Made by a program: the position numbers and the translations under genes. A stretch of 63,035 nt of DNA, counting the filler, from Reclinomonas americana ATCC 50394 (Eukaryota): the NCBI GenBank assembly GCA_048213135.1. It is 16 parts of 16 records of this genome, joined end to end, with 100 filler letters (N's around TTAATTAATTAA, not from the genome) between each part and the next. Parts side by side here need not be neighbours in the genome. Positions count along the whole stretch, not along the records: positions 1 to 6,796 come from AFZH01019190.1; positions 6,897 to 9,938 come from AFZH01019192.1; positions 10,039 to 14,013 come from AFZH01019193.1; positions 14,114 to 15,703 come from AFZH01019195.1; positions 15,804 to 18,216 come from AFZH01019196.1; positions 18,317 to 21,360 come from AFZH01019197.1; positions 21,461 to 23,445 come from AFZH01019198.1; positions 23,546 to 25,163 come from AFZH01019199.1; 8 more parts are not named here. One strand, given 5' to 3'. The notes below the pieces were generated by a model, which made no database searches, had not been told where the DNA came from, and was given only the letters and a program-made list of their open reading frames with translations. This document shows, in pieces, positions 1,131 through 56,507 of the stretch. The stretch's first letter is position 1. Each line of letters starts with the position of its first letter.

Positions 1131-2931
1131 ATGCGGAGAGAGAGCACGCTCATCTCACTCGTGCTTGTCTCGCTGCTGTGCGTGTCTATCGTCGCCCATG
1201 TGGAGGGCCAACAGCAGCCGCGCGCAGCACAGCGCTGGGTCACCGACTCGTCGGGCAGCAGTGTGCGGATGCAGCGATTCCCCGATGTGATTTTCCGCAA
1301 CTCCACGAGTGCCTCCACCACTGCGGTGACCGTGGACGTCCACACAGTGTTTCAGTCGATGAATGGGTACGGTGCGGCGCTCACCAATGCCGCCGCCACA
1401 CTGCTGCTGGCCCTGAAACACACGAATGGGACGATGTACTCGGAGGTGTTGCATCGACTGTTTGACGATGCGGGCGAGGCGCGACTGGGTGTGTTGCGCA
1501 TTCCGCTCGGCAGCACCGACTTTTCGCTGGAGGAGTACGTGTACCAGCCGACACGCGACTCGGCTTTCAGCATTGAACACGACATGCAAGATCTCGTGCC
1601 GGTGTTGCACGACATTCTGGCGGTGCAGCCGAACACGCGTCTCCTGTTGGCGCCCTTTACTGCGCCGCCGTGGATGAAGGACAACCCGAGCTTCTACTGG
1701 GGTACGCTGCGCGACGACATGATTGCACGGTACGCGCAGTACCTGGTCGATGCGGTGACTGCCTATCAGAAGGAGCTTGGCGCCTCGACTGTGTGGGCCC
1801 TCACGCTGCAGAATGAGCCGCTGCACGACCCGTTGCGTCACCCAGCTCACGTACGCGACAATGTTTGTTATGCTGAGAGGCTTGACACAGCTGCGATTAC
1901 CCTTGCATGCGCATGATGCCACCGGCGCAGGTTTTTCTGACGAACTGTCTGTCTGTCAGTCGCCTCCACAGTGCTCCTCACTGTGTCTTTGCGTGCAGAT
2001 CAAGTTGGCACCACAGGTGCGCCAGCTGCTGGATGCCACTGGTGCGGGCCGCAGCGTCAAGGTCCTGGCTTACGATCACAAGTTGCGCGACAGCCTTCCC
2101 TCTATCTCCAGGCTGCCTTTTTCACTGTCGTTCATTCATCACGATCAACAGCTGGGACACCATTTGGTACCCCACCGAGGTGCTCGCTGACGCGACGGCA
2201 GGCGCCGCACTGGCGGGTACTGCCGTCCACTGCTACGGCGGCGACGTCTCGGCGCAGTCGGCACTGCATGGCACCAATCCGACGAAGGAGATCCACATGA
2301 CCGAATGCTCCGGCACCACTGGCGCTCCCGTCTTCAAGGACAACATGAACTGGTGCGACACGTGCACTCCAAGAGCGGCGATTACCCTCTTACCTCACTC
2401 GCGTGCCGCCTCACCAGGAACTGCGCCAATCTGTACCTCGGCGGAGCACGAAACTGGGGCCAGACGGTGTTGCACTGGAACTTGGCACTCGATCAGAACT
2501 GCGGACCGCATCTGGGCGGATGCAAGAACTGCCGCGGCGTGCTCACGCTGCATCGACCGGCGTGGGACACGGCGCGCGTGCCGCAAGCTGTGGACGGCGT
2601 GCAGTACGAGGTCGAATACTACGGACTGTTTCGTCTCTAAAACACTCGTCTTGATCTCCTCCGACGTGCACCTCACCCACCATGCCAATGCAGTGCTCAC
2701 ATGAGTCGCTTCGTGCGCACCGGGTACCAGCGTGTAAGCACCACGGTGACACCCACGGACTGCATCCTGGCCGAGTCGTTCTCCGACGGCACCACCACCG
2801 TCACCACAATCATCAACAATCACTGCAGCGCGCCCGTCGACGTTGCACTCGTGCAAGGCGCCAACGGAGGCACTGCCCTGGTCGCTGCCACTCCACCCGG
2901 CATGACCACACTGACGTATCCCATACTATAA
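1131..2931 (+). CDS. Glycoside hydrolase family 30 (glucosylceramidase / beta-1,6-glucanase-like), secreted, 5 introns
   Basis: Signal peptide; motifs FQSMNGYGAALT, LRIPLGSTDFS, TAPPWMK, LTLQNEP (acid/base), YDHNWD, AVHCYGG, IHMTECSG (nucleophile), WNLALDQNCGP, YYGLAHMSRFVR after splicing. Confidence 0.92.
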
Positions 2932-2999
2932 CGCCGCAATAAAACGCGTTTCTGTAGTCAAACTTACGTACATACGTATTTTTATCATCGCGCGGAGAG

Positions 3000-4370
3000 A
3001 TGTTGTCTATAACGCGAAGGCTGTTCTCTTCGTTGCGCAGCTCGTTGGGCATTGCTTCCTCACACTCACTCACTCACTCACTCACTCTGCACGCAGTCAC
3101 TCCACACTGGCCACTGGCACTCCACTGGCCGAGCAAGTTGTCACAGTCATTGGTGGCAGTGGCTTTCTCGGTCGCGCTGTGGTCGCCGCTCTCCACGACC
3201 GTGTGAAAGAGGTTAAGAGAGAGAGAGTAAGAGAGACAGTCTCCACTGTGTGAGTGCCGACGTGTCGTGCTGCAGATTCGCGTGGCCTCGCGCAAGCCCG
3301 ATCCCTCCAAGTTCACTGAACATCCGCGTGTGACGTGTGTGCCTCTGGATGCCACTGATGCACGCGGTGTGATCACTGCCACACAGGTGTGACGATAGAG
3401 AAGAGTGAGAGTCGTCGAGCGTGCCTGATTCTCTCTCTCTCTCGCTCCCTGTTTGTGTGCGTGAAGGGATCGACATCGGTTGTCAATCTGGTCGGCATTC
3501 TGTACGAGACTCCGCAACAGTCGTTCCTCGACGCGCATGTCAAGATCGCCCGCAATGTGGCCGAGGCCTGTGCGGCCAACCGTTGCGTTCATCCTGCTGC
3601 ATGCTCCTGTGTTTTTGAAGCTGTCCGATGATGGATGGGCTGCAGGCGCCGAGAATCTCGTGCATGTGTCCTCGATTGGATCGGAGACCGATGCACCCTC
3701 GCGCTACTCGCAGACCAAGGCGCAGGCGGAGCGCGAGGCCAAGGTCATCTTCCCCAACATTACCATCTTGCGCCCGTCGATTATCTTTGGAGAGGAGGAC
3801 AGCTTCTTCAACATGTTTGATCAAATGGCCAAGTACTCGTTCATGCTGCCGCTGATTGGCGGTGGTGAGACGCGTTTCCAGCCTGTGTACGTGCAAGATG
3901 TGGCACAGGCGGTGCTCAAGTTGCGTGCGCCGATGCAAGCCACCCATACGCGTACGCAGTTGTGCCTTGTCTTGTTCATTGCGTCTTGGCAGAGTGTTGT
4001 CGGATCCGACGACTCACGGCAAGACGTTTGAGATTGGTGGCGCGCGTGTGTACACGTTCAAAGAGCTGCTGGAGTTGATGCTTCGTGTGACCAATCGGAC
4101 ACGTCTCCTCGTGCCGGTGCCGTTCGCGGTGGCCGCGCTGCAGGGTCGCGTGCTGGAGATGCTACCAGGCCGCCCAGTTGCGTTTTCTGCAACGTGAGAT
4201 CCCTTCCTCATCCTCCCTCCTCACTGCCTGCCACGCAGCTACTGACCGTGGACCAAGTCGAAAGTCTGAAGCGAGACAATGTGGTCTCGCCGACGGCGCG
4301 CACCTTGTCGGACCTGGGAATCGTACCGCGGTCGGTGGAAGACCTGCTGCCGACGTATCTCAAGCCGTGA
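3000..4370 (+). CDS. NDUFA9: Complex I NDUFA9-family atypical SDR with mitochondrial presequence-like N-terminus
   Basis: MLSITRRLFSS N-terminus; VTVIGGSGFLGRAVV, VVNLVGILYE, VHVSSIG, YSQTKAQAE, ILRPSIIFGEED, GGGETRFQPVYVQDVA, LLTVDQV motifs across about 6 introns. Confidence 0.88.
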
Positions 4371-4655: not shown

Positions 4656-4690
<35 letters not shown>

Positions 4691-4694
4691 CTGG

Positions 4695-6585
4695 TTATTG
4701 AGATCCACTGGCCATGGAGCCGCCACTGGCCAACAGCAGCGCCTGTGCGGCGGGTGGCGGGGGTGCCAGGTCGGGGTGGAACGAGCGCAGCTCCTCCCAC
4801 AGGTGTGCCTTGATCATGTCAGTGTTCAACTCAATCACCTCGAAGCTGAAGTCGAGCTTCTCCGGCGCCTCGACCTCCTCATCCAGATTCCGGATGGGCG
4901 CAAAGTACGGGTGCTCGAGTGCCTGTTGGATTGTCATGCGTTCCTTGGGGTGGAATCGCATCATGCCCAGCATCAGGTCGAGGGCTGCGGCGTGCAAGTG
5001 AGTACAAGGGGCATGCACCAACGAGGGAGTCTTGTCGCCAGTGCAAACCTTCAGGCGGTGCATTCGGCATCAGCGTGCTGAAATCGGCGGCCTTCTTGAC
5101 GGGCTGTCGAGCCAGCCAATCCAGAGCCTGCGTCGGTCACAGAAGGGGGGTGAGTGGCAAGAATGCATGAGGAGGAGAGACAAGAGGTGTCTGACCTCGC
5201 GCGAGCCAATGTCAGCAATGCTCTCCCTCGATGGTGTGCCCACCAGCGAGCAAATGACCATGATCTGGTCCAAGTCTGCGGTCCCACGAAGTGAGTACGG
5301 GATCCCGTCGAGCGAATACAGGAGACGAAGGGAGAACGCAACAGGACTTGCCCGGAATCAGCGGTCGGCCAGTGTAGGTCTCGGCAAAGATGCACCTGTT
5401 ACCCGGCGAGTGAGTAAACACAAGTGATGGGAGAGAGAGAAAGAAGGGGGTAACACCACGGGACGAAACGCTGCACTCCACACATCGATCGCTTCGCCGT
5501 ACGTCTTGAGTTGCATGAGCAACTCCGGAGCACCTACAAACACGCAGAAGGTGAGCACGTGCGACAACGGCTCGACATTATTTGAAGCAGTTCATCAGCA
5601 TCATCATCACGCAACGATACCCTGCAGTCGTGAGAATCGAGAGTGAGACACGCAGAACATGATGCATGAACGGGGGCAACAGGAGGAGACGCAACATCGA
5701 GTCGTGACGTACAGGGTCATTTCGACCTTCTTCTCCTCCTCGTAGTGCATGGAGCGAGCCAAACCAAAGTCGCACAGCTTCAAATGACCGTCTTCCGAGA
5801 TCAGCAAGTTGCCGGGTTTCCTGTGTGTGAAATTCACGTTCAGACTGGACTTCAAGACGCGACGCGGATGCCAAAAGACGCAACAGATCGCGATGCAAGA
5901 TGTTGCACGAGTGGCAGTACTTCAATCCCTTGAGCAGTTCGTACATCCATAGCCGACGGTTGTGTTCCGACACCATCGACGGACCGGCCTTGAGCTCCTT
6001 GGCCAGATCGCGATCACCAAGCTCAAACACAAAGTACAGCTGCTTGAAGTCGCTGCGCCGTGAATCACACGAGCAAGTGAGGACGCAGAGCAGCCACCTG
6101 CGTAACACAGCAACAACAACAAAACGCAACTCGTACGACTGCGGCCGCGCCATGTCGAACAACTCAATCACATTGGCGTGCTTCAGGTGACGCAGAATCT
6201 TGACCTCGCGCAGCAGACTGCCAGAGGAAGGGTAAGCACAACGCGGCGTGAGATAATTAGCAACAGAGAAGAAGAGGGGGCGCACCGCTTGGCCTCGGGA
6301 GCACTGCGGAACACGCCATCGACTCGCTTGATGGCCACATCGCGACCTGTGCGGAAATCCGTGGCTCGCCTGTGACATGCAATGAGTGGAAGACACACAC
6401 AGAGTGAGCATGACAGAGAGAAACGCAACACGACAACACCAAAGGCGCCGGCTCCGAGCACCTCATGGATCTCATAGCTGTCATGACGGAAAGCATGCTT
6501 ACTGTCAGTTTGATGCCACTTTGTGAGAGAGAGAGAGCGGGTCTGTGTGCAAGTGGACTCACCGCGTCGGAAGTGTCCACTCTGC
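4695..6585 (-). CDS. MAP kinase (CMGC), 5'-partial, about 10 introns including a 6-nt microexon
   Basis: Spliced: WTLPTRYEIHEVLGAGAFGVV, VAIKR, LLREVKILRHLKH, HRDLKPGNLL, CDFGLAR, MTLYVTTRWYRAPE, IDVWSAACIFAE, ALDLMLGMMRFHPKERMTIQQALEHPYF. Confidence 0.93.
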
Positions 6586-6796: not shown

Positions 6797-6896
6797 NNNN
6801 NNNNNNNNNNNNNNNNNNNNNNNNNNNNNNNNNNNNNNNNTTAATTAATTAANNNNNNNNNNNNNNNNNNNNNNNNNNNNNNNNNNNNNNNNNNNN
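6797..6896. other. Assembly gap linker (first of 15; others start at 9939, 14014, 15704, 18217, 21361, 23446, 25164, 28071, 30552, 35831, 50430, 54877, 57275, 60425)
   Basis: Identical 100-nt N-TTAATTAATTAA-N spacer with stops in all six frames; artificial. Confidence 0.98.
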
Positions 6897-9800
6897 GGTC
6901 ACTGTGGCGCGAGGGTCAGCCACCGCAGGTGCTGGAAAAGTGGATTGCCAACCTGCGGCCTGTTCATCGGTGAGTTGTGAGTGTGAGTGCATGCTGGAGG
7001 AGTGTCATGTGTGAGAGTGCTGATTCGCAATCGCTGCACAGGTGCTCGGTGGAGGCACTGGCGTCGATTGCGCGAGTCGGTGAGATCCTGTCGCTGCGTT
7101 CGCGGGAGGAGATGCGATCGCTCGGCCGGCGTCGAGTGATTACCATGTGGTCCAAGTACGACCCGTTGGTCCGCCGTCTGAGAGAGTTGCGGACGTGATT
7201 GCGTTTTTTTTCTTCGTCACATCTCGCCTGACTCATTTGTTTGCAGGGATTTTGCGTTGGAGGCATACAGACACGATCTGTCAAACACTATCCAGTTGCT
7301 GGTCACGCAAGACGCGTCTATTGTGCAAGAGGGCGTGTTGCGCAACGAATTCGGTCAGCGTGGACTGCATCAGCGCGAGCAAAGCTACCAGCGCATGCGA
7401 GGTGCGTTTGTGTGGTCGTATTGTTGCGGAAAGGCGCGGGAGTTATCTCTGAAACATGTGTGCTTTTTTGCGCTCGTGTAGCGGTCATGAGCGCGATGAA
7501 TTCGCTGGAGATGTTTGAGGTCCGTGTGCGTGCCGTGGCGCAGGAGTTGGCCGAGCGTCTCGTGGCCGGCCATCAGACATTCGGTATGGGCCATCCGGGC
7601 GACCGCGATCTGGACACGCACCAACACGTGTTTGCCATCTATGGTCCAAACACCTACGTGGATTACGGAGCTGTGGCGCTCATCATCAGCCCCGATGTGA
7701 TGAAGCATCCCGACGTGTATGGTTTGTGTGCGAATCGCTCAAAAAAAAACGAACCGAGCTGCACATCTCACTCTCGTCAACAGTGACGCCAGTGGCTGCG
7801 CTGTCATTTACCAGCATGCAGGGATACGGGTTTGTGGTGGTCCTTGTCGGTGTTGTTGTTGTCACTCTCTCGTGTCGCTGATTGGCTCGAGCGCAGCGGG
7901 TACGAGATGCGTCCGTGGAATTTAAGTGAGCGGCTGGAGGAGGTGAATCGCGGCGTGCAGACCTCGTCCGCGGTGGCTGCGCTGTATTCTGACTTGCTGC
8001 TGCATCGGTAGGGAGTGGACGTATCGTCACGCACCCCGCTTCGATCTGGCACGTCGCATGGACCACAGGAGAATGCCTTGTACGTGGACCCCGACGTTGG
8101 CGAGCAGGTACGGCCTGGGCTGTCTTGTTCTCTGGATTGGCAGGAAGGAAAGTAACACTCCCGTGCACAGCTCTTTGAGGAGTCACGTGTGCATCCGTAT
8201 TTGACACCAGACGCCGCCAGCCTGCTGGCGCACGACATTGCGTGCCGGGTGCGCCTCGTTCTCAGTGGTGGCCGCGAACCGCGACCGTTTGACAACTGGT
8301 GCGTCTCTGACTGCAGCATTCTGTGCATGTGGCATGCGGGTTACCCCACTGACATATCTGATACAGGCCGCGAGTACGTGAGCTGCTGCACGACATGGGA
8401 TTTGAGGATCAGCTGGGAACACCGGAGATGCTTCGAGTGTGCGTCCAAGAAACACAGCAGAGCAATGCCCGTTGATGTGCATTTTTTGGCTCATTCCACA
8501 TTACAGCATCGACGAGCACCCGCAACTGTTGATCGAGGTCTACACGGCGATGGATGCACACTCGTGTCTGGAGGCGCACTTGCCGCCGCGTGTGCCCGTG
8601 GAGTGGGTCGAGCGTGTTGTTCTGGACCAGGAGTCGTACAGTCGTGCGTTGCTTGCAGTGATGTGGGATCGGTACAGCGCAAGACGGATGTCTGATCTTG
8701 CTACTGTTCTGCTGCAGAGCTGATGTCGAGCATCGACCTGGCCAAGTACCCCGCCGGCGCATTGTTGCTGGAGCGAATGGTGGTGCTCGATACACCCGAG
8801 GCCGTCGAAGACTATCAGGTTGCGTACATGCTGGATCCGTCGTTGCGAAGACCGCTGTTGGATGTGTCGCCGGCAGGTAAGCATGACGGACCTGTCTCTC
8901 CATCCCTCCTGCCCCTGCACACCTCGTTGCTCATTTCCACCAGGTCTGTGCTGCGAGCTGCGCGATCTGCGACTGCGACCCGTGTGGCTGCCGGTGGCAC
9001 TCGGCGACGATCCAACGTACATTGAGATGAAATTCGAGGCCCGTGTGTACGGCGAGATGCGCATCATGCTGGCCGACAGCACTGCCGTGCATTCGCTGCG
9101 ACTGGATGGCATCCGTCGCGCTCCCGTCAACTTTGGTGACAAGTCATACACCATATGCTTTGGGTGTATCTCTGCGGCGAATGCCAGTCAGCCGTGCGAA
9201 ACCGCCATTCGTCGCGGTGGCGGGCCCGAGTGGACCGTGTCTGTTGCGTTGCATGCGAACATCGTCCTCATTCCTGTTGATGTAAGCTCACCGTGTCATG
9301 ATCAGACCACGAACAATGCGGCGCTGGCAGTGGAGGGTTCGCGCGACTCCTACTGGGTCGTGTACGAGCGCAAGATGACTGCCGACGGACCGCTGGCGCG
9401 CATCCAAATCCGTCGCACCACCGATGTGGGCGACGCGCCGCTGTTGGTGTGGGAGGACCCGTCTCCGTTCACAGTGCAGAACATTGCCGTCACCTGCTGC
9501 GATGATCCGGTCAGTGTCTACCAGCTGCACGTGCGAGTCATCAATGAGGTTGGTCGGACGCTGCATGTAGGTGTTTGCACCATTTCCCCCCCTGACCCAG
9601 CCTCCTTTGTGTGCAGAATCGTGACGGTCGAAAGGTGTCATCAACCTTTCCGCCCACTGCGTCGGAGACGTTGTCGAATGATCAGCTGGTGAGTGTTTTC
9701 TCCCTTGTTGTGCATGAGTGGTTCTCGAGGAGAGGTTGTTGACGAATATCACTCTGTGTAGCCGACGGGAGTGCGGCGTGTGGCCAACTCGTCGAGTGTG

Positions 9801-10512: not shown

Positions 10513-13500
10513 TCACGCCACTGGGGGTGGCGGAGTTAAAATCCACATTGCACCGCTCTGCTCGGCGACCACGATTGGATCTCGGGTGATCGAGTCGGTC
10601 TCCGTGTTGATGGTCCACGAGCTGGAGGGTTCACGTGAGAGCGGAGCCGGCTTCATGTCGACGCGTGGCGACGATTCTGCACTCTTGATGCCGCCGCCGC
10701 TGACGCCACCGCTGCTCAGCAGGCGCGCTGAAGTGTTGACCTTGGTGGTCGTGTCCGCATGCCGCAGTCGTGGCGGAGGTGGAGTCGGCGTCTTCCCCGC
10801 CGATCGCATGCTGTCGACGGCGCTGAGTGAATCACGTGACTCGGACGACTCGTTGTCACTGTCGGCATCGTCGCCACCACCGACGGCTCGAATAAGCGAG
10901 TCGCCATCCCAGGCCATGGGCTTGATCAGCGCACCCGTCGAGTGCACTGTCGCCGCGCGTCTGCGACTCGGCGACTGACTGCGCGTCCGTTTGACCGCAC
11001 CGTCGTCGGCCGGCAGCGCCAGCTCGTCAGGATCCTGCGTCCACATGGCGTCGATGGTGATTGACCGCGAGTGATGTGGGCGGTGATGGCCACCTTCGTT
11101 GAGCTTGGCGCGTGTTCCTTGCGGAAGCAGGCGCGGTCGAGCTGCCGCTGCAATGACGTCTGGCAGCGGCGCCGTGATCGCGGTGCCGTTTCCGCGCGGT
11201 GATCCGCCGGCACTGAGAGAGGTGCGGCGAATACCACTGTCGTCCATGGAGAGCGACGAGGCACTGCGGCGTCGGCGATCGCGCTTCTCTCGCAGCTTCT
11301 GCTGCAACACCGGGAACTGGTTGGGATCGACCATGCGATCCGACGCGCGGCTGCAGTCGGAGAAGGCCGATTCGGAAGGTGCGTGTCGCGCGAGTGGCAA
11401 CAACATGCCAGGTGTCCGTGGCGAGCTGGGTGCACTGAGCGAGTACGCCGGTGACAGTGGCATACTGGCGGCGTAGCCAGGTGGATACAGGCTGCCATGC
11501 ATCGACGGCGAGAAGCGCGAGTTCGACGATGGTGTGATCAGCGGCGAGTCGAGCAGCAAGTCGCGCGACATGATCGACAATGGTGGCGGCGGCTGCGCCT
11601 GCATCTTGGCCGGCATGTGTCGAAGCGACTGCATCTGTTGCTGCTGCTGTTGCATCTGCTGCCACTGCTGCTGTTGTTGTTGCTGCTGCTGCTGCCATTG
11701 CTGTTGTTGTTGTTGTTGCTGTTGCTGCATTTGCCATTGCTGCTGCTGTTGCTGCTGCTGCTGTTGCTGCTGTTGCTGCTGCTGTTGCTGCTGCTGTTGT
11801 TGTTGCTGCCACTGCAGCAGCTGCTGGTGTTGTTGCTGCATCTCCATCTGCTGCGTGTGGCGAAGACTGCCGAACAAGAGCTGGTTGCTGCCGACTGCCG
11901 GCACCATCGGCGACATGAGGTTGGCTGGCACCTGCATGAACGGATCCGTCACTGTCGACAGCGTCTGCGACGGTGGATCGTTCGACCGCATGCTGCGGCT
12001 TGCCGGGAAACCACGCGGACGCGGCGGTGATTTGATCGGGCCGGTCTCTGTGAGTTGGGAGGTGGTTGAGAATCACTGTCTCCCCCAGAACGTGCGGCAG
12101 ACGTGCGCGCTGCGCAACTCGTCTCACTCGTCGTCCGTCGCACACTTTCGTGGGAGTTGTCGAGTATTCCCGTCTCGCCGAGTCGCATGGGCGGCTAATG
12201 CAGCACGATGACGGTGGTGAGTAACACGCACACAAGAGACACAATCAGTCACATTCACACACGCTCTCACCAATGTGTTGTGTCGTCGGCGTCCCTGCGG
12301 CTGCGGTTGCTGTTGTGGTATCGACTGGGTGGGTGCCAACATGCTATCATCAGGCGCACTGAACGTGGGCTGCAACAATCCCGAGTCGTCGTCGGCTGCG
12401 GCGCCGCTGTCGACGAGACCATCCACAACCAGTTCTCCGTCCATGCCAGCAACGCCACTCTCCGAGTCGTCCACCATAAAGTGTGCCGTCGACTGCCCAC
12501 CGTTCTGTTGCTGCTGCTGCTGCAGTTGCTGCTGCTGCAGCTGCGCCTCCTCTCCAGCATTGACAATCACCACACGTCCACTGTTGGAGCGCGACGGACC
12601 GGGGCTGCCTCCTCGGGAGAGTGCACGAAGAATTCCCGTCGGCAGCTTGCTGGTCGACGTCTCGGCACTCGACGCTGCTGTGATGGCGTTGCGGACCGTG
12701 TTAACAAATTGGGTCGCACGCGCCGAGTCGTACCCGGCCGCCGCTGCGGCAGCGCCACCACCCGTACTCAGAACCGATGACGTGACGCTGGCACCGCGCG
12801 GCGAAGTGCTTCGCGAAGCCGACCGCAGATAGTGGCCAATGATGGTGAACGCCACACCGCCGGACGCACTCTGTCGCAGGCTTCCCGACGCCGAGGCCAG
12901 ATCGTCGCCGTCCGCCTGTGTCGCTGGGTCGTCGGCACGGCTCGCGGTGGGCGATGTCTCGTCGAATGAAGCATCGTCGCCACCATCGGGACCGGCAACC
13001 AGCATGGCACGTCGGCGCAGATATCGCTGACGCGTGTTCTTCAAGCGGTCACGCAGCGAGTCGCTGATGGTCTTCCAGTGGTCCACATTGTCGGTGATCA
13101 GTTCGTCACTCGAGAGCTCCGCGGCAACAATGGAATCGTCGAGAGTGTCGTTGAGGTCGACTGGTGCGCCGCCGCCCAGTACAATGTCGTCCACGTGTCC
13201 GTGCAGCCACGGGTGCTCCAACATTTGCTCGAGGGTCAGTCGTGCAGAGCCGTCCTTGACCAGGAGGCTCTTGAGGAAGTCGATGCACAACTCGCTCACC
13301 AGACCCTCGGGGTAGTGCACTCTGTGGGTTTTGTTTGCACACTGTAAGCAACAACTACCGCAGCCGGGAAACGGTCGTGCAGAGTGGGGTTAGACGGCAC
13401 GACACGCAACTCCTTGGTCTTGATTTCGCGATACATGCCGATTTCGCTGTCGGCAAAGAACGGCAGCTTGCCAAAGAGCATGACATACAGCGTGACGCCC

Positions 13501-14013
13501 ATGGCCCACACGTCAGCCGCACGCCCGGGCACCGATTCGCCTTGCAAGGCTTCGGGGGCCACAAACGCCGGCGTGCCCTTGGTCATTCGCATCACGTCGT
13601 TGTCGGCAGTAAAGGTGGAGCTGACACCAAAGTCGCCAATCTTGAGACGATCGTTCGAGTCCACCAGCAGATTCTCCGGCTTGATGTCGCGATGTACAAT
13701 CTTGTTCTCGTGCACTGTCGAATGCGACTGCAAGTCAGAAGCTGAATGCAGCACGGGGACTGCGTGCAGTCAGTCACGCAACAATACATCATGCCCTCGA
13801 TCATGTCAATCATGTACTTGCGAGCTTGCGTCTCGTGCAACGCCGGCTCCTTGGAGTACCCGTTCTTCTCCAAACTCATCACTGCTCCGCGCTCAACATA
13901 CTGCATCGAAAGATAAACAAATAAACAGTGAGACTCGAGCTACTACTACTCCCACGAGCGAGCACGACGACGCACTCACCTCCATCACCATGTACAGCTT
14001 GTGCTTCGACGGA
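10513..14013 (-). CDS. CaMKK/SnAK(GRIK)/Sak1-like Ser/Thr kinase with a long low-complexity, polyQ-containing C-terminal tail; 5'-partial
   Basis: KLYMVMEYVERG, LHENKIVHRDIKPENLL, IGDFGVS, TKGTPAFVAPE, GRAADVWAMGVTLY, LTLEQMLEHPWL; spliced in frame to ORF 10513..11991. Confidence 0.85.
11630..11855 (-). repeat. CAG/CAA coding trinucleotide repeat (polyglutamine punctuated by Trp/Met)
   Basis: (ctg/ttg)n on the + strand; encodes QQQWQQQ...QWQMQQ in the kinase tail. Confidence 0.9.
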
Positions 14014-14113: not shown

Positions 14114-16211
14114 TCGTGTGCATCACTTGTGGCGCGACAGACGCGGAGGGGCTCGCCAAACCATTTCCTGCACACCCTCAAACGTCTCGTGCATGAACTC
14201 AAACAACTTGAGGACGACCGTCTGCAAGAATCTCCAGTGTTCCACCAGAAACTCGGGGTACTGGCCCACAACATACATGATGTTGGTGGCCACCACCGCC
14301 TTGTTCTCCTTGCCACGACGCCCCTCGCACAGATGAAGCAAGTCCTTGATCACCGACACCAAGAATCTCTTCTCGGCATCCGGGTCTGCGGGGAAACAAG
14401 GGGCAAGGGTGAGTACTCTCTGATAATTCGATCCAACTGTGGGGCAGGCACACACACCCATGGCTCCACTGATGGCACCCACGGCCCAGCACAAACTGTT
14501 CAAGCTGTCCCAACTCGTGTCGGTGCCAGTCATCTGCCACGCGAACAGGGCGGTTGGTCGACGGCATCAAGAAAGCAAGAGGAAATGAGAGAATGAAACA
14601 CGTACCTGGTGGCCGAGCTTCTCCTCGATGATGGCCACCGTGTCGGCCGAGTCCAAGTGCGTCAGATACACCAGCGTCTCATGCAGCGTCTTGTACCGCT
14701 GAATGGATTCCACATCTTCCAGCTGCTCTCTTACCAACTGGCCAGTGTCGTCCTCCACGAGTCGCACCTGCGATGCCGTCAAATGAGTACGCCACGACGC
14801 GACAGCGGTGGGTGACGACGTGTGACGCAATCAGCACCAAACAACAAACCTCTTCTGGCTTGGCCATGCGAGAGATCAGCAGCATGCGAACGTGAGACAG
14901 CACGGCGGCGTACTTCTGTTTCCGAATGGCACCCGGGTCACGCCCGGCGCCCAGCAGGAGCCCGCGCCCCTGTGACGGACGTGGTGCCGAAGAAGCGTGC
15001 AAGTTGGCCGTCTACGAGAGGAGAGAGAAGCGGGGATGAGACGACCTTCAGCACAGCGTGCAGATGTGTGTGCTTGGGGTGAAACGCACCAAAAACAGCC
15101 AGTACTCGACACACTCCATGAAAATGTCAATGTCATCGATGCTGGTGAGCGACACCATGTACTGGTGACCGGCCACCACCAACTCGACCAACTCGGGCAC
15201 ACTTTCCAGTTGGCCCAGATGTGCTCGGAAGATGGCCGAGAAGAAATGCACCAGGTTGCGCAGGAACTCACGCTCCTCCTCCGTGGCCGACGAATACGCC
15301 GAAGTGTAGTCTGCTCACAAGGAGGACCAACAGTCAACACGTCGACCCCTCACTCTCGTTTCCCGCCCATAAACATGCACACACACACACCGATCGAGGT
15401 CGGCAGGAACTCGAGCAGCTGGCCCACCACGCCAGCGTACAATTGCGCAAACTTGGGGGCATACTCGCCGCCTGGATCTTGGCCGGCGATCTCAATCAGG
15501 CAGATGGTGGTCGGGTTGCGGAAGGACGGGTACATGAAGAACTGCCAGCAAACGCGTAAACAAGCACACACTCAGTGCCGAGCACCACCACGAGGACAAG
15601 TGGCGACTTGACGCGGACCTTGTGAACCAGCTGGTCGATCAGCGTGGTGTCAAAGATGAAGCCCGACGGAATCCACGACAAGAACTGATGCAGCGTGCGC
15701 AACNNNNNNNNNNNNNNNNNNNNNNNNNNNNNNNNNNNNNNNNNNNNTTAATTAATTAANNNNNNNNNNNNNNNNNNNNNNNNNNNNNNNNNNNNNNNNN
15801 NNNGTCGACCACGGTCCACGAGCGCACGTCGTCCTTGAACTCGTTGAGGATTTTCGATGCCGCATCAATCTGTAGTCAAAAAACACAATGAGTTAACCGA
15901 CTCGACGTCTCTCTCTCTTATCATTGGCAGGGGCAGTGCATGCGTGTGTGTGCGCGACAGAGAGAGAGAGTGTGTGTGAGAGAGAGAGAATGTGTTGCGC
16001 GCGCGCGCGCGCACGTCACTGTAGATGAATCGCACACACATAGAGGAAACTCAACATGCGCAGGCACTCCACTGTGCATAGCCGAGCACACATGCTCCAA
16101 CAACGGGATCATCTCGGCACTGCCGGCGCCCGTGTTGACAACAGCCTCCAACATGCCCATGAGCGCCACGCGACACTCCTCCCACGAAGACGGCGCTCCA
16201 ACGTTCGACAT
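14114..16211 (-). CDS. XPO1: Exportin-1/CRM1, N-terminal half, interrupted by the gap at 15704 and truncated at 14114
   Basis: [117 protein letters not shown]. Confidence 0.95.
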
Positions 16212-34526: not shown

Positions 34527-35830
34527 TCAACGGACAAGAGTCATCCATGCGCCGTGGTCTGTCAGAACCTCGTTGACAGCTGCGCGGCCATTCTCGAAAT
34601 AGTCGTTGAATTGGGACGGGCTGAAGAATTGGTTGGCGGTGCTCGTGTGTGGGAAACGGCCGCTGGTCAACGACGACTCGTGGCAGCACTTGTTGCAGCA
34701 CTCGCAGCACATGCCGACATTGTAGCCGTGCTCCTCGCGGCGACGCGGCTTCATGTAGATGATGATGCCTTCGTTGTCGGCGAGATTGACTCCACCAAAA
34801 GCCTGCTCGTCGCCGGGGTCGAACGGCCCCACGGCGGCCACACGTTCTACGTCGGCCGGATGCACTGCTGGCGATGGATAGCGCACCTTGAAGGCCACAT
34901 AGTGGTCACGCTCGAAGCGTACACGTGTGTCTTCATGAACGCGTGTGCGCTGTGTGCACGGTTGAGCATCGATGGCAAATGGAGCAACGTGCAAGCACCA
35001 AGCGTTACCTCTTGCAGCTCAATGTCAAACCTGACAGAGTGCATTGTGTCGTCCAAGACCGGCGTCGGGAAGAACGTGTGATGCATCAGTGTCTGCAGGG
35101 GCAGCAGTGAGCACAGGAGTGTGTGTACATCGGTGCGTGCGGCGAACCAAAATGTCCTTGTGTGCTGGGTCAATCGGGTAGAACTCACATCCGTACCAGT
35201 TGCGCGCTCGTTCTAGAGCATTCAACAGATCCAGACACTCACGCGAGCTGTCCATGCCGCCGTCGAGCGCGATGATGTGCTGCAGTGGATTTTTCCTCAT
35301 GAGTCAGTGATAACTGTGTGCAGTGGATATAAGCCACGCACCCGGTGACGATCGCGCAGCAGGGCCAGCAGGGCGAGATTCTCCAGGTGGCCACCATCGG
35401 AGAGGTACACTTGAGTCGGCACCGCATCATCGACGGTGTGCAAATGAAGACCCTGGCGAATGGAGCTGACAACGTGCAGGGTGACTTCCAGCATCTCCGA
35501 GGCAGTCCAGCAACAGTTGTTGCGTTTCATCTGCACTTCAGTCCCTCCGGGCAGTCGCTCGTATCGTTCTGCATGTCGCAAGAGTCAAAAACAGCAGCAC
35601 GTGAACGGAGGAGGAGGAGGAGTGCACTCACGCAACTGCGACCGAGGAAGGGTATGAGGACCGTGCATACAATGGCCACGAGCAGCATGCCCAGCAAAGT
35701 CGTGCTGACACCGATGCGCATGCCAAAGTAGACACCCTGCGCCGTGCTCTGATCGTACTTGTTGTAGTACATGGCGCCGAGAAGGCCGCACACGGCCAAG
35801 AATGCGGCAACAAAGATCCAGCACACCACG
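34527..35830 (-). CDS. Patatin/cPLA2-like phospholipase domain protein with TM segments; 5'-partial
   Basis: VYLSDGGHLENLALLALLR, IIALDGGMD, IIIYMKP, RFPHTSTANQFFSPSQFNDY. Confidence 0.7.
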
Positions 35831-45706: not shown

Positions 45707-48700
45707 ATGACGAGCGGTGTGTGGTCGTGCGTGTGTCTCCACGATGATCCTCTGGCACACCACACGTGAGCTCAAGCGCAGCGCATTCACCATCTCGCTT
45801 CTCTGACACAATTTCAGCAGTGTGCATCGACTCTATGTGGAGTGGCTGGTGCAGCAGTGGTCTGCACGCGCACCACAGCGTGCGGCACTGCGCAAGGCCA
45901 TGATAGATCGACATGCATCGCAAGGGGTGGGAGCGCATACAATGTGATGTGCATTTGTGTATGTGTGTGTGAGATTGATTGACTCGATTGCTGCGATGCA
46001 GATGCCGCCCAGTGGATCGCGACTCGTGCCGACGTGGTTTCTCGCAGAAGAGCGCTTGTGGCGCGGTGTTGATGCACTACTGGAGGACTTTAGTGGGGAG
46101 ATACCGCATGTGAACACTAAGGGGCGCTCGTGGAGACGACAATGGCGAAACGGTGCGCGAGTGGAATGGCTAGCGCGTCTCCGACTGCTGCTTCCCGTGC
46201 TGGAACGTGCGGAGATGGTGGCCTCATTGGTGCACGCGGTGGCTCCGAAAGACAGTGAGGAGCCATCGTCGGCGGCCTCGGCGCTGCTGGTGCGGGCGCA
46301 TTCGGCTGTGCGTGAGCACGTTCGGGAGCACTTGTCGACGGTGAACATGCGATCTGCGTTGCGAGATGCATTTGCGGCATTGTTGTTGTCTGTGGAGTCA
46401 CGAGAGGTGGTGACGGTGGATCGCAAAGAGAAAGGAGACAAGGGAGATCGACAATGGTTGTTGTGGGCTCGATGGTTTCAGTGGCGACGGCAGCGACGGC
46501 GACGTCGACAGTGGTTGATGCACACGGAGGCGCGATGGTCGGCAATCGACGACATTAGTCGCCTTGAGCGTCTGGCGACCGCTCGACTAGACCCGTCGTC
46601 GTCGTGGTTGACTGTCGTGTTCTTTCGTCGTTGGGTGTGCCACGTGAGTCGCGTGGAGCAGCAGTACCCTCTGCTGCCACCATTATCGCCTGCATCGCCC
46701 CTGTTGGAATCGACGGGTTCTCTCGTGGCCGACGCGCTGCGTTCCGGCGACTGGTCATCATTTGGCAGCGGCGCAGTGTTGTGTGCGTGGCGAGGAGTAC
46801 GTCGAGCAGTCGCCACGTATCCCGATCGCGCCCAGTGGATTACGCCGGCACTCGCAGCTGCGCTTCGTGCATCTGGTCGAAGCGAATCGCGTCCGTTTGT
46901 GCAGCATGTCGTGGCTTGGTACTTGCAACAAGCGCAGTTGGCACGGCGCAAGGAGCTGGCCGAAATCGGTGCGTGTCAACCGATGGCTGTGCTCCTTCTG
47001 CGCCGCTCACATTGTCTGTGTGTGCTCGTAGAGTTTGTGCGCCAGTTTCGTGCCCTCTTGCTGCAACTACGCGACGCTGTGCATCGTAGCCTCGAGGACT
47101 GGCGCTCGGTGGAAGAGGACCTCGGTGTGGACGGAGGCTCGGCAGGCGAAATCACCCATTCCAACTTGCTGCGTGAGCAGGTGCGCGCTTTGGAGTGGTA
47201 CTCGCACGCGCTGGAGCGGGAGTGCATAGAGCGAGAGCAGCTGGCACGCGACGCCCTGCGTGTGGTGGCCGAGTTGCCAGTTCGGCTGTGTACCACGTTG
47301 CGCAGCGCTGGATCGCCGACGACATGTTGGCGCTGTTGCTGACGTGAAGATTGATTGCACGCAGTTGCGAATGTCGCACAGCGCTTGAGTGTCTGCGCAA
47401 GCATGTCGACGAGCCCCTGACGCTCGCCGTGTGCCTGTGCTCGGATTATCTGCCAGACTACCTGGCCGTTCTTGTGCCGGCCAAGTTCCGTCGTCGCGGT
47501 GCTGCCTGGAGTTGCGTCCTGCTGTAGGCGCACGCCTGACATGTGTTCACCATCCAACCGTCCTCGCCACAGGTCAGCAGTTTGGTGGACACGACGAGAT
47601 GAACGCAGGGTACACATGCATACACGGTCGTCCGTTTCTTGATTGTTTCGCTCACCTCGTTTGTGTGTGCGGTAGGTTTCCACTCAATCTGCCGCTGGCC
47701 GTGCGTGACGCGGTGGCCACTGTCCTTCGCCACCGTGTGGCATCCTCAGGGGCCAACTTGCTCCTGCTCGAGGAATCGCTGATGAACACGAGGTACGCGC
47801 CACAGGAGTGCGCATGAACGTGAGATGATTTCCCATTTTTTCTTCTGAGCTGCAGATTTGACGAGTGGCTCCGAGAGCTAGACAACGTCGGCACGGGCGC
47901 TCGAACAAACGTGGACACGCGAGAGGCTGTGACAGTGTTTCTGTTGCGTTCCACGCAGTCCGCGGTGCGCATGCACCTGTTTCTTCCCCAAAAAACACTG
48001 ACTATGTCGAGTCAGGTTTGAGTTTCTCTGCTCAGCTCTGCCACAACTCTGGCAGACGGATTTCCACTTTCTGGTGTCGATGCCGACCCACGAACTGCTC
48101 GTTGTCAATCGGGTCTTGTTGCGTCGGAGGCAACTGCCAGCTTTTGTCGCCTGCATGTGGTGGCTGACAAAAGCGTGCGTCGCAGGAGTCACATGGCGAG
48201 TGTGGACAACCTCGGTCGCCCACTGCATTCGCTGTGGCACATGTTTTCGGAGAAGAAGCTGCTGTCCGAGGTCCTTCTCGAGTTGCGTCACCAGCAGGCG
48301 CTTTCTGGTGGCCTCCAGCGACAGTGATTCTCACCGAGTGCATGTCGCAGAAACGAACGCAAGTTGGCAGCCGCCGTAGTGCGCTCGTCGTCGAGCATGG
48401 CAGGCTCGCGATCGGCGGCCATCGTGAGCATCCCGCATGCATCGCTGCAGACGCTGTTGTGGTCGCCGTTGTTTGAGCGCATCCGCGGCGAACATCACGC
48501 TCGGACTGCGACGCTGGCCGGCGACAACTACTGGACGGTGAGTGTCAGCAGTGCGAGAGTGTGACTGTGATACGCGCACACTGATGCACACAATCAATGT
48601 GCGCAGTATCGACACAAGGAGACCGACGAGGCCGCCACCTCCCTGCCGACAACAGAAAAGGTGGTACTGTTGCCACCGGCGTGGAATGCGCGTGATTTCA

Positions 48701-50264: not shown

Positions 50265-51855
50265 TCAGTAACCCTCATCATCGACGTCGAAGCCAGAAAG
50301 AGGACTGGTGAAGTACGCGTGTGCCAACACTTCAGTGGCAGTCGGGCGTAGTTTCGGGTCCACTTGGAGGCAGCGCTGCAGAGATTACACGTCAACAATT
50401 CTGCACCGTTTGAGAAAGGGAAAGGGGAGNNNNNNNNNNNNNNNNNNNNNNNNNNNNNNNNNNNNNNNNNNNNTTAATTAATTAANNNNNNNNNNNNNNN
50501 NNNNNNNNNNNNNNNNNNNNNNNNNNNNNCACACACACATACAGGGAACAGCTTTCAGACAGAAAACACGGAGATTGATTGTGCAGACAACGCAGACACA
50601 CAGAACCTGTGGCTTTACATCGCGATGCACCACTCCACGCGCATGACAGTACCGCAAAGCCTGGAACAACTGGCGAGAGATATCCTGCCCATCGAAACAA
50701 ACAAGGTAAGCGTGAGTCACCGAAAAACCAGACAGAGTCGGTATGTCAGACAACTCGGCACTGCACCACTCAGGTAACACACTCGCACTCTGTGCTTGCA
50801 CGTGCGCCCACTGATGCACATGTGCACACACAGAGAGAGAAAGAGACAGTGCGAGGGCCGTGCACGGAAGAGATTTCGAACAGTGCGAGAATGCAGGATT
50901 CATCACGGAAGGAGAGGAGCATGCATCACTGGTGCAGCATCTGCACGCGCACCTTTTCTTCCCCAGAGAGAGAGAGAATGACAACGAGGCAAGCGCGCGT
51001 GTGTGTGTATGGGAAAGGTGAGTGGGGAACGCACCTGCACGAGCTCTGGTCTCATGCCACTCTCGCACCCTCTGTCACCCATGGCCATCCACAAGTCGCG
51101 TTCCACCCACTCAAAGATCAAAAACACGCGATTCTTGAACACCACCACATCCTCCAGTCTGGCACACGTGCATGAGACACACAGAGACAGACAAAGCAAG
51201 CAAAGGGAGAGAGAGGCGGAACTTTACAATGTTGTCGTGCTGCAACTCACGCAACAAGGCCACCTCACGCAGCGTGTGCGCAGGCACTCCATCCGTCTCT
51301 GTGGAGACCTTGGTGCGCTTCACCGCCACACGCCGGCCAAGCAGCGAGTCATACGCCTGGCCAAAACACAAGAGTGTGAGGGCGACATTGCGCACTCAAG
51401 ACACACGCGCACGTACACACCTTCATCACGGTGCCAAACGCCCCCGACGCAATCTCCTCCACATCTTGCAGATAGGTCAGACGAGCGGCGGCACTGCCCT
51501 CGCTCTCGTCTTCCATTGGCAAAACGAAATCGGAAAATCTGTTTGCACTTTCATGTTCAAATAACTCATCAATGAGCGTCGTCAAGTGCAGCTTCTTTGT
51601 GTTTGATGTGGACGATGATGATCCGTGTGTATTGGTGCAAGAGGCGGTGAGAGTGTTGCTGTGTGGAGTGGGAGTGTCGTCGGTTGGGTTGCCGCTGGTG
51701 CAGCCTCTGTCGTCATCGTCGTGGCTCTTGTCGTTGTCCGTGGCGGTGGTGGTCAGCTGTGGTGGTGGTGCTGGTGACGAGGCAAGGGAGATGGCGGGCG
51801 CGGCGGAGGATGTGGAGAGGGTGAGGAAGAGAGATGCAAAGACTGTCAACCGCAT
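50265..51855 (-). CDS. Cyclin-dependent kinase-like protein (PAHTLRE); middle lost in the gap at 50430
   Basis: IASGAFGTVMK, VAVKR, DGVPAHTLREVALLRELQHDNIV, FEWVERDL, HRDVKPQ; C-term LQVDPKLRPTATEVLAHAYF. Confidence 0.88.
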
Positions 51856-54005: not shown

Positions 54006-54033
54006 CAATGTAGAGCGTCAGTACTTAACTCTT

Positions 54034-56507
54034 TCACTTTTTCAGGGCCGAGAACATATTGGGCGCTCTCTTAGCTCTGGCCGCGGCCGCTGCCGCCGCT
54101 GCTGCCTCGTCGTCGCTGTCGTTGTCCTCGCCAAACACATTGAGTGGCTTGATTGGAGTCGTCTGTGGTCGCGAAGGCGGTAGTGTTGGCGGAGGAGTCG
54201 GAGCCGCACGCGCCAGGCTGCATGCACATCAGAGTACGTCAGCATCTTCATGAATGTGCAACAGAGAGAGAGAGAGAAACACGAACAACGGTGACGAGTG
54301 CGGGTGTGATGCAAAGCCGCTGGGGCTGGGCGCTAGTGGCGGTGGCGGTGGCGGTGGCGGAGGTGGTGGCGGTGGCGGCTGGAATTGAGATTGAGATTGG
54401 GGAATGCCGCCGAGCACGGCGCCGCCGGGAGCAAACCGCGATTCAAATTGCTGGCGGTCTCCCGGCGACGGCCGTGCGACCGCAGCTGCTTGGTGGCCTC
54501 CATACGAGTCACTGAAGCGAGATCGAGGTGGCCGTCGATCATATTCTGGAGATGGGCTCCGTCGTCGAAATCGCGAACCTGGCGGCGACAGTGGCGAAGG
54601 ACTGCGGCGGCGACGTGGGGGCGAGCGACTTCGTCGACGATAAAACTCTGGCGAACGACTCCTCCGTCCACGATCGCCTGGAGATCGACTTCGTCGGCGA
54701 TACGACTCTGGCGAGCGACTCCTTCGTCGTCGATCGATTGGAGAGCGACTCCTGCGACGGTCGGAGGATGGTGTCGGCGACCAACGATTGCCGCGGCGTG
54801 AGTCCGGTGGAGATCTCCTATCATATGGCCGAGGGGGAGCAGACGATGGTGGCGGTGGTGGAGGCGGCGGCATTGANNNNNNNNNNNNNNNNNNNNNNNN
54901 NNNNNNNNNNNNNNNNNNNNTTAATTAATTAANNNNNNNNNNNNNNNNNNNNNNNNNNNNNNNNNNNNNNNNNNNNCGGCGACGAATCCACCCCTGTGCG
55001 AAGAAGGGATCAGTCATCATGTGCCGTCGCACAGCAAGCACAGCACACGCACCTCTCCACCTTGGGTTCAGGAGTGGCGACGGCGACGAACCCACCCCTG
55101 TGCGAAGAAGGGATCAACAACCTTGTTACATCACACAGCCAGCACAGCACAGCACACGCACCTCTCCGCTTTCGGTTCAGGAGTGGCGATGGTCACGAAT
55201 CCACCCCTGTGAATACTACCAACCTTGTGACATCGCATCACTTAATCCCCGCACGCAGTCCCAACTACACACCGCTCAGCATCCTTGTCCTCCGCCTGGC
55301 CGCCTGTGACTGCACTTGTTGCCGCTTCGGAGGGCCGCGCCGACGGGCCAATCTGCATGCCCTGTGCTGTCTTGGCCATCTTGACTAGCTTTTCCAACTC
55401 TCGCTCCTCACGATCGCGCTCCCGCTGCCGCTTCTTCTCGGTCGACTGCGGCGTGATATGCAGCTTCTTGGTCTCCAGCAGACGCTACGAGACAAGGCAA
55501 CAACCGTGACACAATCGAGGCGCGACCCAGGACGCACAGGAGACGCGGATACGAAGCGCGTCGGCACACCTTGCGATGGTGATGGTCGTACGAGCTGAGG
55601 TGATTCTCCAGTTGCTTCACGTTGGTGTACTGTTTCTTGCACAGATCGCAGTAGAAGCTCTTGTTCATGTCGCGAACATCCGTCTCGATGGCCTCCTGTC
55701 GCTGTACCACTTCCTCACTGCGCATGTGCGACACGGTCACATTCGGCGAGCAAGAAGAGGTGAGCGAGAGCAGCCACGCAACAGTTTCTCACGTCGTTCC
55801 GCGGTGAGCTCCATCTCGATCTCCATCAGCCGTCGCTTAAAGTTCTCCGGTCGCGTCATCTCCTCGTCGTGTGTGTCTTTGCCGAGGCCAGTCGTGTTGG
55901 TCTTGAGGCGCACAGGCACCGGCTCAAGTCGTCCCTGACCCTCCTTGCCCAGGCCCTTCTCCTCGTTCCAGCCGAGCTTCTTCAGCATCTTGAAACCCTT
56001 GTTGGAGGACGCAATGGCCTTGTCTAGTGAGGCCGCCGTGGGTGCGTCGTCATCCGCACTGCACACGACACCAGAGATATGTGTTTGAGCGATCGTCTGC
56101 AAGCACACACACGCGCGCACGCGCGCATGCGCACGCAACTCCTGTGCGGCAGCACCCAGTGGCATCACGCGCTCCTCGAGCAGATCGTCCCAGCCGGCGG
56201 CACGCTCGCCCTGCGACTCATTCACTTGTCAGTGCGTGCATTCCCGCCATCTCACTGCCGCGATCACACATGCCTGCTCAATGCGACGCCTGCGATACTC
56301 CTCGTATGCACTGTCGGCTGCAGCCACTGCCTGGTACCGTTCGGCCACACGAGCGATGGGCGCCACAGGCAAGTGTGCCTGGGAACGCGCCTCGGCCAGC
56401 AAGGCCTGCGTCTGTTCATCGCGCAGAAAGACGGTGCGATCGGCGGCTGATGGCGCGGCGATGAATGAGGGACCGAGTCGGTCGCGCTCACGAGGGGGCT
56501 CGCCCAT
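54034..56507 (-). CDS. G-patch + C2H2(jaz) zinc-finger protein with RS/Pro-rich C-terminus (GPATCH8-like); joined across the gap at 54877 by inference
   Basis: SNKGFKMLKKLGWNEEKGLGKEGQGRLEPV...GLG; FYCDLCKKQYTNVKQLENHLSSYDHHHRK; RRRSRSP repeats at 54229-54873. Confidence 0.8.
54977..55275 (-). repeat. Tandem ~105-bp exon+intron repeat units (at least 2.5 copies)
   Basis: Repeated ggttcaggagtggcga...gaa(t/c)ccacccctgtg and cagcacagcacacgcacctctcc blocks; each unit holds a 45-nt phase-2 exon. Confidence 0.85.

Follow-up and report, generated by a model that had tools for sequence, protein, structure and literature searches.

In a 63,035-base stretch of the genome of Reclinomonas americana ATCC 50394 (GenBank assembly GCA_048213135.1), which we call the window throughout, the 5' splice sites, or donors, of the inferred introns fall into two classes, and the class that is used depends on a single base, the last one of the upstream exon (position -1). 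In the first class, R0, a G stands at intron position +5; in the second, R1, a T stands at +3 and a G at +6 with no G at +5, the extra base of R1 thus being a T by the definition of the class. Among 135 predicted introns, 76 donors are R0 (56 after an exonic G and 20 after another base), whereas 38 are R1, of which one follows a G and 37 follow A (18), C (6) or T (13) (Fisher p = 5.4e-14); 15 other GT donors and 6 GC donors make up the rest. Expressed by -1 base, the proportion of R0 to R1 is 56/1 after G, 4/18 after A, 8/6 after C and 8/13 after T. The R1 hexamers are nearly uniform, viz., 33 GTTGCG, three GTTTCG and one each of GTTGAG and GTTGTG. This bears out the central claim of a first-pass annotation of the window, namely that a major donor class carries its conserved G at +6 instead of +5 when the exon ends in a base other than G. 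The two classes and their dependence on the -1 base are a real property of the inferred introns, seen across the whole window and far beyond chance.

The introns were predicted with an exon-chain gene finder whose score is built from a three-periodic coding model, a weight matrix for acceptors, a term for intron length and a first-order donor model restricted to positions +3 to +8. Since the exon bases -3 to -1 lie outside the score, the link between the -1 base and the intron motif cannot stem from the model. The counts above come from a refined run with cleaner gene borders; an earlier converged run gave 130 introns with 54 R0 donors after G and 17 after non-G, one and 34 R1 donors, respectively (p = 1.5e-13), besides 17 further GT and 6 GC donors. 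For the refined set, the association recurs on the plus (p = 1.8e-8) and minus (p = 1.9e-6) strands, in both parts of the window (1-30000, p = 1.4e-8; 30001-63035, p = 1.9e-6) and in codon phases 0, 1 and 2 (p = 1e-4, 2e-5 and 5e-4). A control run without the donor-sequence term, which yields 191 introns, retains it (R0, 52 after G and 33 after non-G; R1, 0 and 27; p = 1.8e-9). At GT sites that are not donors, G precedes 18% of 2636 R0-like and 17% of 238 R1-like sequences; hence, the link belongs to donors and not to the sequence background. Of the 41 GTTGCGT heptamers in the window, 23 were predicted donors in the first run. The hexamer GTTGCG itself occurs 51 times on the plus strand and 35 times on the minus strand, and raw k-mer counts proved uninformative (7 of 85 NGTTGCG are GGTTGCG), with non-donor sites diluting the signal. 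A gene finder without signal models was discarded as too noisy, and an intron penalty of -6 was dropped, as it introduced many doubtful introns inside long open frames.

In the subset of junctions checked by homology or by hand, the separation is complete: all 12 R1 donors follow a non-G base and all 12 R0 donors follow G. Ten of these R1 donors were checked by homology (minus-strand donors being named by their higher coordinate: 6130, 5884, 5695, 5615, 5469, 5342, 13782 and 51222, with 19687 and 34172 on the plus strand) and two by hand (1832 and 3032). None of the 20 predicted R0 donors after non-G falls in this subset, and part of them may be prediction errors. The rough hand counts of the first-pass annotation were about 30 shifted and about seven unshifted donors after non-G, against our 37 and 20; the earlier count of about seven may be nearer the truth than 20.

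The MAPK-like gene (4695-6466, minus strand), which is closest to MAPK chains in PDB, supplies half of the checked R1 junctions. A word-based search with its 55-residue exon returned no match, and relatives were collected instead by an exhaustive protein search, in which the spliced model aligns over residues 16-312 with 44% identity (E 1e-88). The alignment has five gap positions, none of them at the nine junctions in this range. Six of these junctions are R1, with donors a/GTTGCGT at 6124-6130, t/GTTGCGT at 5878-5884, t/GTTGCGT at 5689-5695, c/GTTGCGT at 5609-5615, c/GTTTCGT at 5463-5469 and t/GTTGCGT at 5336-5342, and three are R0, with g/GTGCGC at 6280-6285, g/GTCAGA at 5190-5195 and g/GTTTGC at 5043-5048 (the slash marks the exon-intron boundary). 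The Pkinase profile also runs on continuously across the donors at 6130 (46-70 to 71-123) and 5884 (71-123 to 125-155). Between the R1 donors 5695 and 5615 lies a micro-exon of 6 nucleotides (nt), GGTATC (5616-5621, minus strand), which restores the conserved TRWYRAPE and is flanked by introns of 74 nt and 82 nt that both start with GTTGCGT. A further R1 donor of this gene, t/GTTGCGT at 6423-6429, is called by the model outside the aligned part of the protein; the six GTTGCG donors that the first-pass annotation had read in this gene, and the two in the G-patch gene, are all present in the models.

The model of the HMG-CoA synthase gene (plus strand) aligns with its homologues over the full length (E 4e-136) and confirms the R1 donor t/GTTGCGT at 19687-19693, which was also read by hand, together with five R0 donors: g/GTGAGT at 18747-18752 and 18911-18916, and the likewise hand-read g/GTGCGC at 19847-19852, g/GTGTGT at 20057-20062 and g/GTATGT at 20245-20250. 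Here, the gene finder gave the intron at 18747 a wrong acceptor, which was corrected by hand to 18803. Pfam profile positions are continuous across junctions of the DUF4464, CRM1 and kinase genes. In the DUF4464 gene, the profile passes from 30-114 to 115-170 across the R0 donor g/GTGTGT at 33949-33954 (plus strand; 114 to 115) and from 115-170 to 174-230 across the R1 donor c/GTTGCGT at 34172-34178 (plus strand; 170 to 174). In the CRM1 gene (minus strand), the R0 donors g/GTTTGT at 14844-14849 and g/GTGTGT at 14452-14457 join positions 1-25 to 29-68 of CRM1_repeat_2 and 4-24 to 27-51 of CRM1_repeat_3, respectively. The kinase alignment of the CaMKK-like gene shows no gap at the R1 donor t/GTTGCGT at 13776-13782 (minus strand).

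In the CDK-like gene (minus strand), which also has an R0 donor supported by homology (g/GTGTGT, 51415-51420), the gene finder chose a false GTTGCGT donor at 51255, where homology prefers a/GTTCCGC at 51216-51222: using 51222, the model reaches 69 bits and has 3 gaps, whereas with 51255 it drops to 49 bits and a 12-residue gap appears. In the GH30-like gene, it placed a false donor at 1863 and missed a 40-nt mini-exon (1891-1930, plus strand); the true structure comprises the R1 donor c/GTTGCGT at 1832-1838, the mini-exon and a donor at 1931, as read by hand from the frames (NEPLHDP, mini-exon, IKLAPQV), with a GTTGCGT intron at 1832-1890 and a g/GTTTTT intron at 1931-1998 on either side. The mini-exon presumably corresponds to the YP..C..P..Q stretch of GH30 proteins. 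The epimerase-like gene has c/GTTGCGC at 3032-3038 (plus strand) as the donor of its first intron, by hand and by model. Hence, the donors called in the first-pass annotation at 1832, 3032 and 51222 are right, the first two by frame reading and the third by homology. Another intron of the epimerase-like gene has three candidate donors in frame within 3203-3232 (plus strand), t/GTGAAA at 3203, g/GTTAAG at 3212 and a/GTAAGA at 3227. The option at 3212 would make a GTTAAG donor after G.

The remaining R1 donors carry support of differing kinds. All 17 coordinates that the first-pass annotation had listed carry the hexamer it gave, after a non-G base; of those not yet mentioned, the model also calls the following, all on the plus strand: a/GTTGCGC at 2082-2088, t/GTTTCGT at 2628-2634, c/GTTGCGT at 3582-3588, a/GTTGCGT at 3920-3926, 4177-4183, 41105-41111 and 42540-42546, a/GTTGCGG at 7186-7192 and 37191-37197, t/GTTGCGT at 27161-27167, and the R1-type a/GTTGTGT at 33620-33626 and a/GTTTCGT at 40934-40940. 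The model adds t/GTTGCGG at 7423-7429, c/GTTGCGC at 47297-47303 and a/GTTGCGT at 48282-48288 on the plus strand and, on the minus strand, a/GTTGCGT at 13404-13410 (CaMKK-like gene), 30387-30393, 35630-35636 and 56133-56139 (G-patch gene), t/GTTGCGT at 55776-55782 (G-patch gene) and a/GTTGCGG at 32973-32979 (taspase-like gene). The sole R1 donor after G, g/GTTGCGT at 32753-32759 (minus strand), is a model call in the same taspase-like (Asparaginase_2) gene, where the first-pass annotation had placed its single exception. Predictions alone give t/GTTGCGT at 9243-9249 (plus strand) and a/GTTGCGC at 12112-12118 (minus strand, CaMKK-like gene), and weak ones t/GTTGAGT at 16049-16055, with a 186-nt intron, and a/GTTGCGC at 32503-32509, with a 193-nt intron (both minus strand). 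Genes differ in their share of GTTGCG-type donors (MAPK-like 7/10, epimerase-like 4/6, CRM1 0/6, a large TIG-domain gene 1/15; permutation p 0.02), and this share follows that of non-G exon ends.

Beyond their 5' ends, the two classes are alike. The introns are of the U2-type GT-AG kind, beginning with GT (rarely GC), ending with AG and restoring the reading frame on removal. A branch-like motif YTVAY, 8-45 nt from the 3' splice site, is found in 50 of 65 R0 and 27 of 32 R1 introns, mostly as CTCAC and then as CTCAT and CTGAC, rather than as CTAAC or CTGAC, at a median distance of 20.5 nt in R0 and 20 nt in R1. Both classes have an RCAG acceptor, with C at -3 in 91% and 94%, a similar median length (71 nt in R0 and 68 nt in R1, p 0.35) and a similar base composition. 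Thus, R0 and R1 differ only at the 5' end, whereas their 3' halves are the same in kind.

At the 5' end, the R1 core is strict (G+4 91%, C+5 94%, T+7 80%). R0 donors after G are laxer, with G+3 at 67%, C, T or A at +4 in 37%, 35% and 24%, and T+6 at 69%, while those after non-G are again stricter (G+3 94%); GTGCG accounts for 27 of the 76 R0 donors. The pairs found at +4 and +5 of R1 (GC 33, TC 3, GT 1, GA 1) are a subset of those at +3 and +4 of R0. Three GC-AG introns are credible, with donors cag/GCACGT at 19473-19478 (plus strand; hand-read and by homology, with a one-residue gap at the junction), cag/GCAAGT at 20434-20439 (plus strand; model and homology) and cag/GCATGT at 56268-56273 (minus strand; model), their exons all ending in CAG and their introns beginning with GCA, one of C, A or T, and GT. 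Their +3 base is A, in contrast to the G that predominates there in GT donors.

We propose that these are ordinary GT-AG spliceosomal introns of about 70 nt, CTCAC-like in their branch motif and ending in RCAG, whose 5' ends would represent two registers of one frame, G-[G/T]-T-N-N-G-T. Where the second base of the frame is G, the GT of the cleavage site would start there and the first G would be the last exon base (R0, G/GTNNGT); where it is T, the GT would lie one base earlier and the first G would be intron position +1 (R1, H/GTTNNGT, nearly always GTTGCGT). The split of R0 and R1 by the -1 base agrees with a simple count of matches to this frame. The most likely reader of the frame would be the 5' end of the U1 small nuclear RNA (snRNA), with one U1 species perhaps serving both registers. 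On R1 donors, it would sit one base out of register, such that the C normally facing exon G-1 would face intron G+1 and U+2 would lie opposite a mismatch, and the cut would be placed later at the GU, presumably by U6, U5 and Prp8. Once shifted, U1 could also pair its next base, which we take to be U10, with an A at -1. We put the probability of this reading, one recognition frame in two registers probably read by the 5' end of U1, at roughly 0.4. It is the best among the readings compared; in molecular terms, the frame might be read by a single U1, by two U1 species or by some other factor.

Such a register has precedents. The consensus CAG/GUAAGU pairs with AUAC-psi-psi-ACCUG of U1 (PMC9311317), and shifted-register human donors, due to Roca and Krainer 2009 as described by Tan et al. 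2016, are regarded there as proven cases in which all pairs between the donor and U1 move by one position; U1 is also described there as able to pair away from the cut (PMC4856993). As in these, the R1 donors have a conserved G at +6 and fit U1 poorly in the canonical register, with intron G+1 replacing exon G-1, and the human model substrate, ACA/GUCAAGUAU, has an exon ending in CA that matches the A-rich -1 base of R1 (PMC4856993). In contrast to this rare human class (all validated noncanonical registers together make up 1.5% of 201,541 human donors in that account), R1 comprises 38 of 135 predicted donors, has a nearly invariant core, GCGU instead of AAGU, and is tied to the -1 base; its register, moreover, is read here from the sequence. 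The R0 consensus resembles the GYGCGY donors described in Mamiellales (bioRxiv 10.1101/2022.06.08.495308) and is thus not new in kind. Mamiellales, Thecamonas and Entamoeba are each presented in that source with one consensus, and the portion of it that we drew on mentions no second register dependent on the -1 base, unlike the two registers found here. As for the GTTGCG donor class tied to the -1 base, we found nothing in print, the malawimonad literature included, in a search that left subscription journals and preprint supplements outside.

Several observations weigh against this reading, among them the pairing energies, which were computed with the canonical U1 5' end from a table in PMC4856993, although the organism's own U1 may differ. 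With this guide, the mean energy is -1.6 kcal/mol for 35 R1 donors and -6.4 for 71 R0 donors; without T+3, the pairing of R1 becomes stronger after A, C, G and T alike; and the two pseudouridines of U1 would lie opposite G+4 and C+5, the near-invariant bases of R1, a combination that selection for pairing would not be expected to produce. The minimum-energy duplexes of the 35 R1 donors contain the shifted pairs in about 10 cases, the others being barely paired. Even when the guide is taken to be a hypothetical perfect complement to the R0 consensus, none of the 35 R1 donors pairs better with its extra T than without. Hence, the stability of a single guide by itself fails to explain why R1 exceeds R0 after non-G (37 against 20). 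On the exon side, the evidence given below for a shift falls to a difference of 4.3 (confidence interval -6.5 to 15.2) when column -1 is removed, and a profile slid the opposite way still gains +5.4, since the A pattern repeats every two bases. Finally, every intron here is predicted or derived from homology within 63 kb of sequence, and the gene finder made at least four errors (1863, 51255, the acceptor of 18747, and the choice among 3203, 3212 and 3227). With regard to the energies, two explanations remain: either an anchoring G outweighs the nearest-neighbour rules, e.g., through U1 proteins, or there exists a second guide matched to GUUGCGU.

Such a second guide might be a U1 variant, or a variant pair of U1 and U6, with a 5' end that matches GUUGCGU in full, e.g., with an A opposite U+2, leaving R0 to the ordinary U1. 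It would account for the excess of R1 after non-G that the one-guide energies leave unexplained, and for a core far stricter than that of R0, which would fit a guide that is rarer, or more exacting, than the ordinary one; the strict GC of R1 opposite pseudouridines speaks for it too. Co-evolved U1 5' ends do exist, as in Entamoeba, where GUUUGU donors are reported alongside an ACAAAC U1 (bioRxiv 10.1101/2022.06.08.495308). However, a dedicated guide alone would not lead one to expect so few R1 donors after G (1 of the 69 donors that follow G), and Mamiellales and Thecamonas, with their GYGCGY donors and +4C preference, respectively, are described in the same source as keeping a standard U1. 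The three GC-AG donors, moreover, show the pattern CAG/GCA[CAT]GT that a canonical U1 would select, which hints, from three cases only, at its presence. We consider a second guide rather unlikely. The first-pass annotation had inferred routine shifted pairing or variant snRNAs, either of which may apply. Tentatively, more than a quarter of the introns in this deep-branching protist lineage might be marked one nucleotide off the cut, either by one U1 anchored from either side of the junction or by a second U1 matched to GUUGCGU, though we would lean slightly against this.

In a different geometry, which can be weighed on the exon side, both GU and GCGU would be paired in the normal register, first by U1 and later by U6, with one U at +2/+3 looped out. 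One-nucleotide bulges at +2/+3 are proven in human, with 68 predicted and 54 curated sites, and this register likewise has one extra nucleotide between the GU and the downstream paired block (PMC4856993). Some bulge or stretch would also be needed at the catalytic stage if U6 pairs with G+6 and U+7. Nevertheless, as in the human case, a bulge keeps exon position -1 in register, opposite the C that prefers G, and should favour a G there, and G is found before only one of the 38 R1 donors (1 of 35 against 10 expected in the earlier run, and 17% at non-donor sites). Instead, A is enriched at -1 (18 of 38 against 8.0 expected from phase-matched coding composition) and at -3 (15 against 6.7), but not at -2 (5 of 38), whereas R0 donors after G have an excess of A at -2 (19 of 56 against 10.7) and -4 (18 against 9.5), as was also observed in a separate comparison. 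Consistent with the exon pattern moving along with the core, the R0 exon profile scores +8.5 log-odds on R1 exons when slid by one base and -7.1 in the same register, a difference of 15.7 (bootstrap interval 4.6 to 26.7, with a fraction of 0.003 at or below zero). Two other ideas were rejected: a cut of R1 introns one base to the right or left would need a flanking exon G, which is absent, and one-base sliding of an R0 intron fails in that the acceptor cannot follow. Because G is so rare at -1, we prefer a shift to a bulge, with moderate confidence; the shifted-register proposal of the first-pass annotation is thus partly supported, though to a limited degree, as the exon-side signal comes mostly from column -1. 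The bulged U itself we regard as unlikely.

The two donor types might also reflect no register at all, with GTTGCGT simply being the strongest intron motif for some other reader, such as a protein or U6, and being retained where the exon lacks G-1. Compensation between -1G and intron positions, in particular +5G, is regarded as general in eukaryotes, donors without -1G needing a stronger intron part, and R0 donors after non-G are likewise stricter at +3 than those after G; that U1 pairing energies explain little would also fit. Unlike in this general compensation, however, the main answer to a missing -1G here is the same motif moved by one base: the R1 core is the R0 consensus core TGCGT displaced by exactly one position, its variants TC, GT and GA are R0 variants, the motif selected after G is GTGCG instead of a relaxed mix, and the exon-side A pattern moves with the core. 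This option therefore appears improbable.

A separate, minor-spliceosome-like class of introns with its own 5' signal is suggested by the very existence of two consensus types, one of them very strict and free of an exon G, which is reminiscent of U12-type against U2-type introns. We consider it very improbable, as the shared branch motif and its distance, acceptor, length and composition make a separate spliceosome with its own branch signal unlikely. The R1 motif is also, as we take it, unlike the U12-type 5' signal, and U11, U12 and U6atac have no Rfam match within the window, which is weak evidence. Least credible of all is an artefact of gene prediction or chance, for although every intron is inferred and the donor model can draw in stray GTTGCGT words, as at 51255, the -1 base was never used in prediction, and the association persists without the donor-sequence term, is perfect in the checked subset (12 and 12) and is absent at non-donor sites.

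The window itself consists of 16 short contigs joined at 15 places by linkers of the form N44-TTAATTAATTAA-N44 (the first at 6797-6896), so that contig ends truncate genes and gene order across a linker carries no meaning. Its G+C content is 58%, and its genes are eukaryotic, with many short introns. Pfam matches on open frames include a GH30 hydrolase, the epimerase-like protein, three protein kinases, CRM1, HMG-CoA synthase, TAF7, a TROVE protein, a helicase, DUF4464 and a G-patch protein, among others. The homologues of the HMG-CoA synthase are at most 70% identical; for that gene, the protein collection thus contains no annotated close relative. Rfam gave no match on the window at gathering thresholds, and the four matches at E <= 5 are weak and unrelated, with no snRNA among them. 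One of them, to the bacterial small RNA isrG at 11560-11843 (plus strand; 32.7 bits against a gathering score of 100), sits inside a long repetitive coding exon and is most likely due to chance.

The first open frame (2-1085, plus strand) encodes a homologue of GspF (Pfam T2SSF), a protein of the mitochondrial type II secretion system, with best named matches in Malawimonas jakobiformis (57%) and Andalucia godoyi (53%). The gene contains a spliceosomal intron of 58 nt at 273 and is therefore nuclear; the protist thus carries this rare secretion system, which is described as confined to a few protist groups (bioRxiv 10.1101/790865). The genome of A. godoyi is, in its description, intron-poor, which is not the pattern of the window. 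An alignment of GspF homologues, used to scan metagenome contigs, returned five loci, of which only one looks related: a contig of 1003 bases (L003, 1-1003) with 61% G+C and a GspF 65% identical to that of the window, which is the closest DNA relative found and is too short for introns. Two others, L001 and L002, have 38-39% G+C.

Shifted and bulged U1 registers have been known as rare human exceptions, whereas here a shifted register is possibly a main class that can be predicted from one exon base. If true, this would show in nature, and across a whole genome, that where U1 pairs is separable from where the 5' end is cleaved, with a simple rule in cis, the -1 base, distinguishing two modes of recognition. 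Studies of splicing would gain a natural case in which to see how the cut is positioned with U1 one base off, as well as a test of whether snRNAs co-evolve with donor signals. For gene prediction in this and related protists, a single position-weight donor model would blur the two registers. Our gene finder erred in this manner, whereas the first-pass annotation had 1832, 3032 and 51222 right by hand. Should it be borne out by RNA data and by the snRNA genes of the organism, the pattern would merit real interest in splicing biology.

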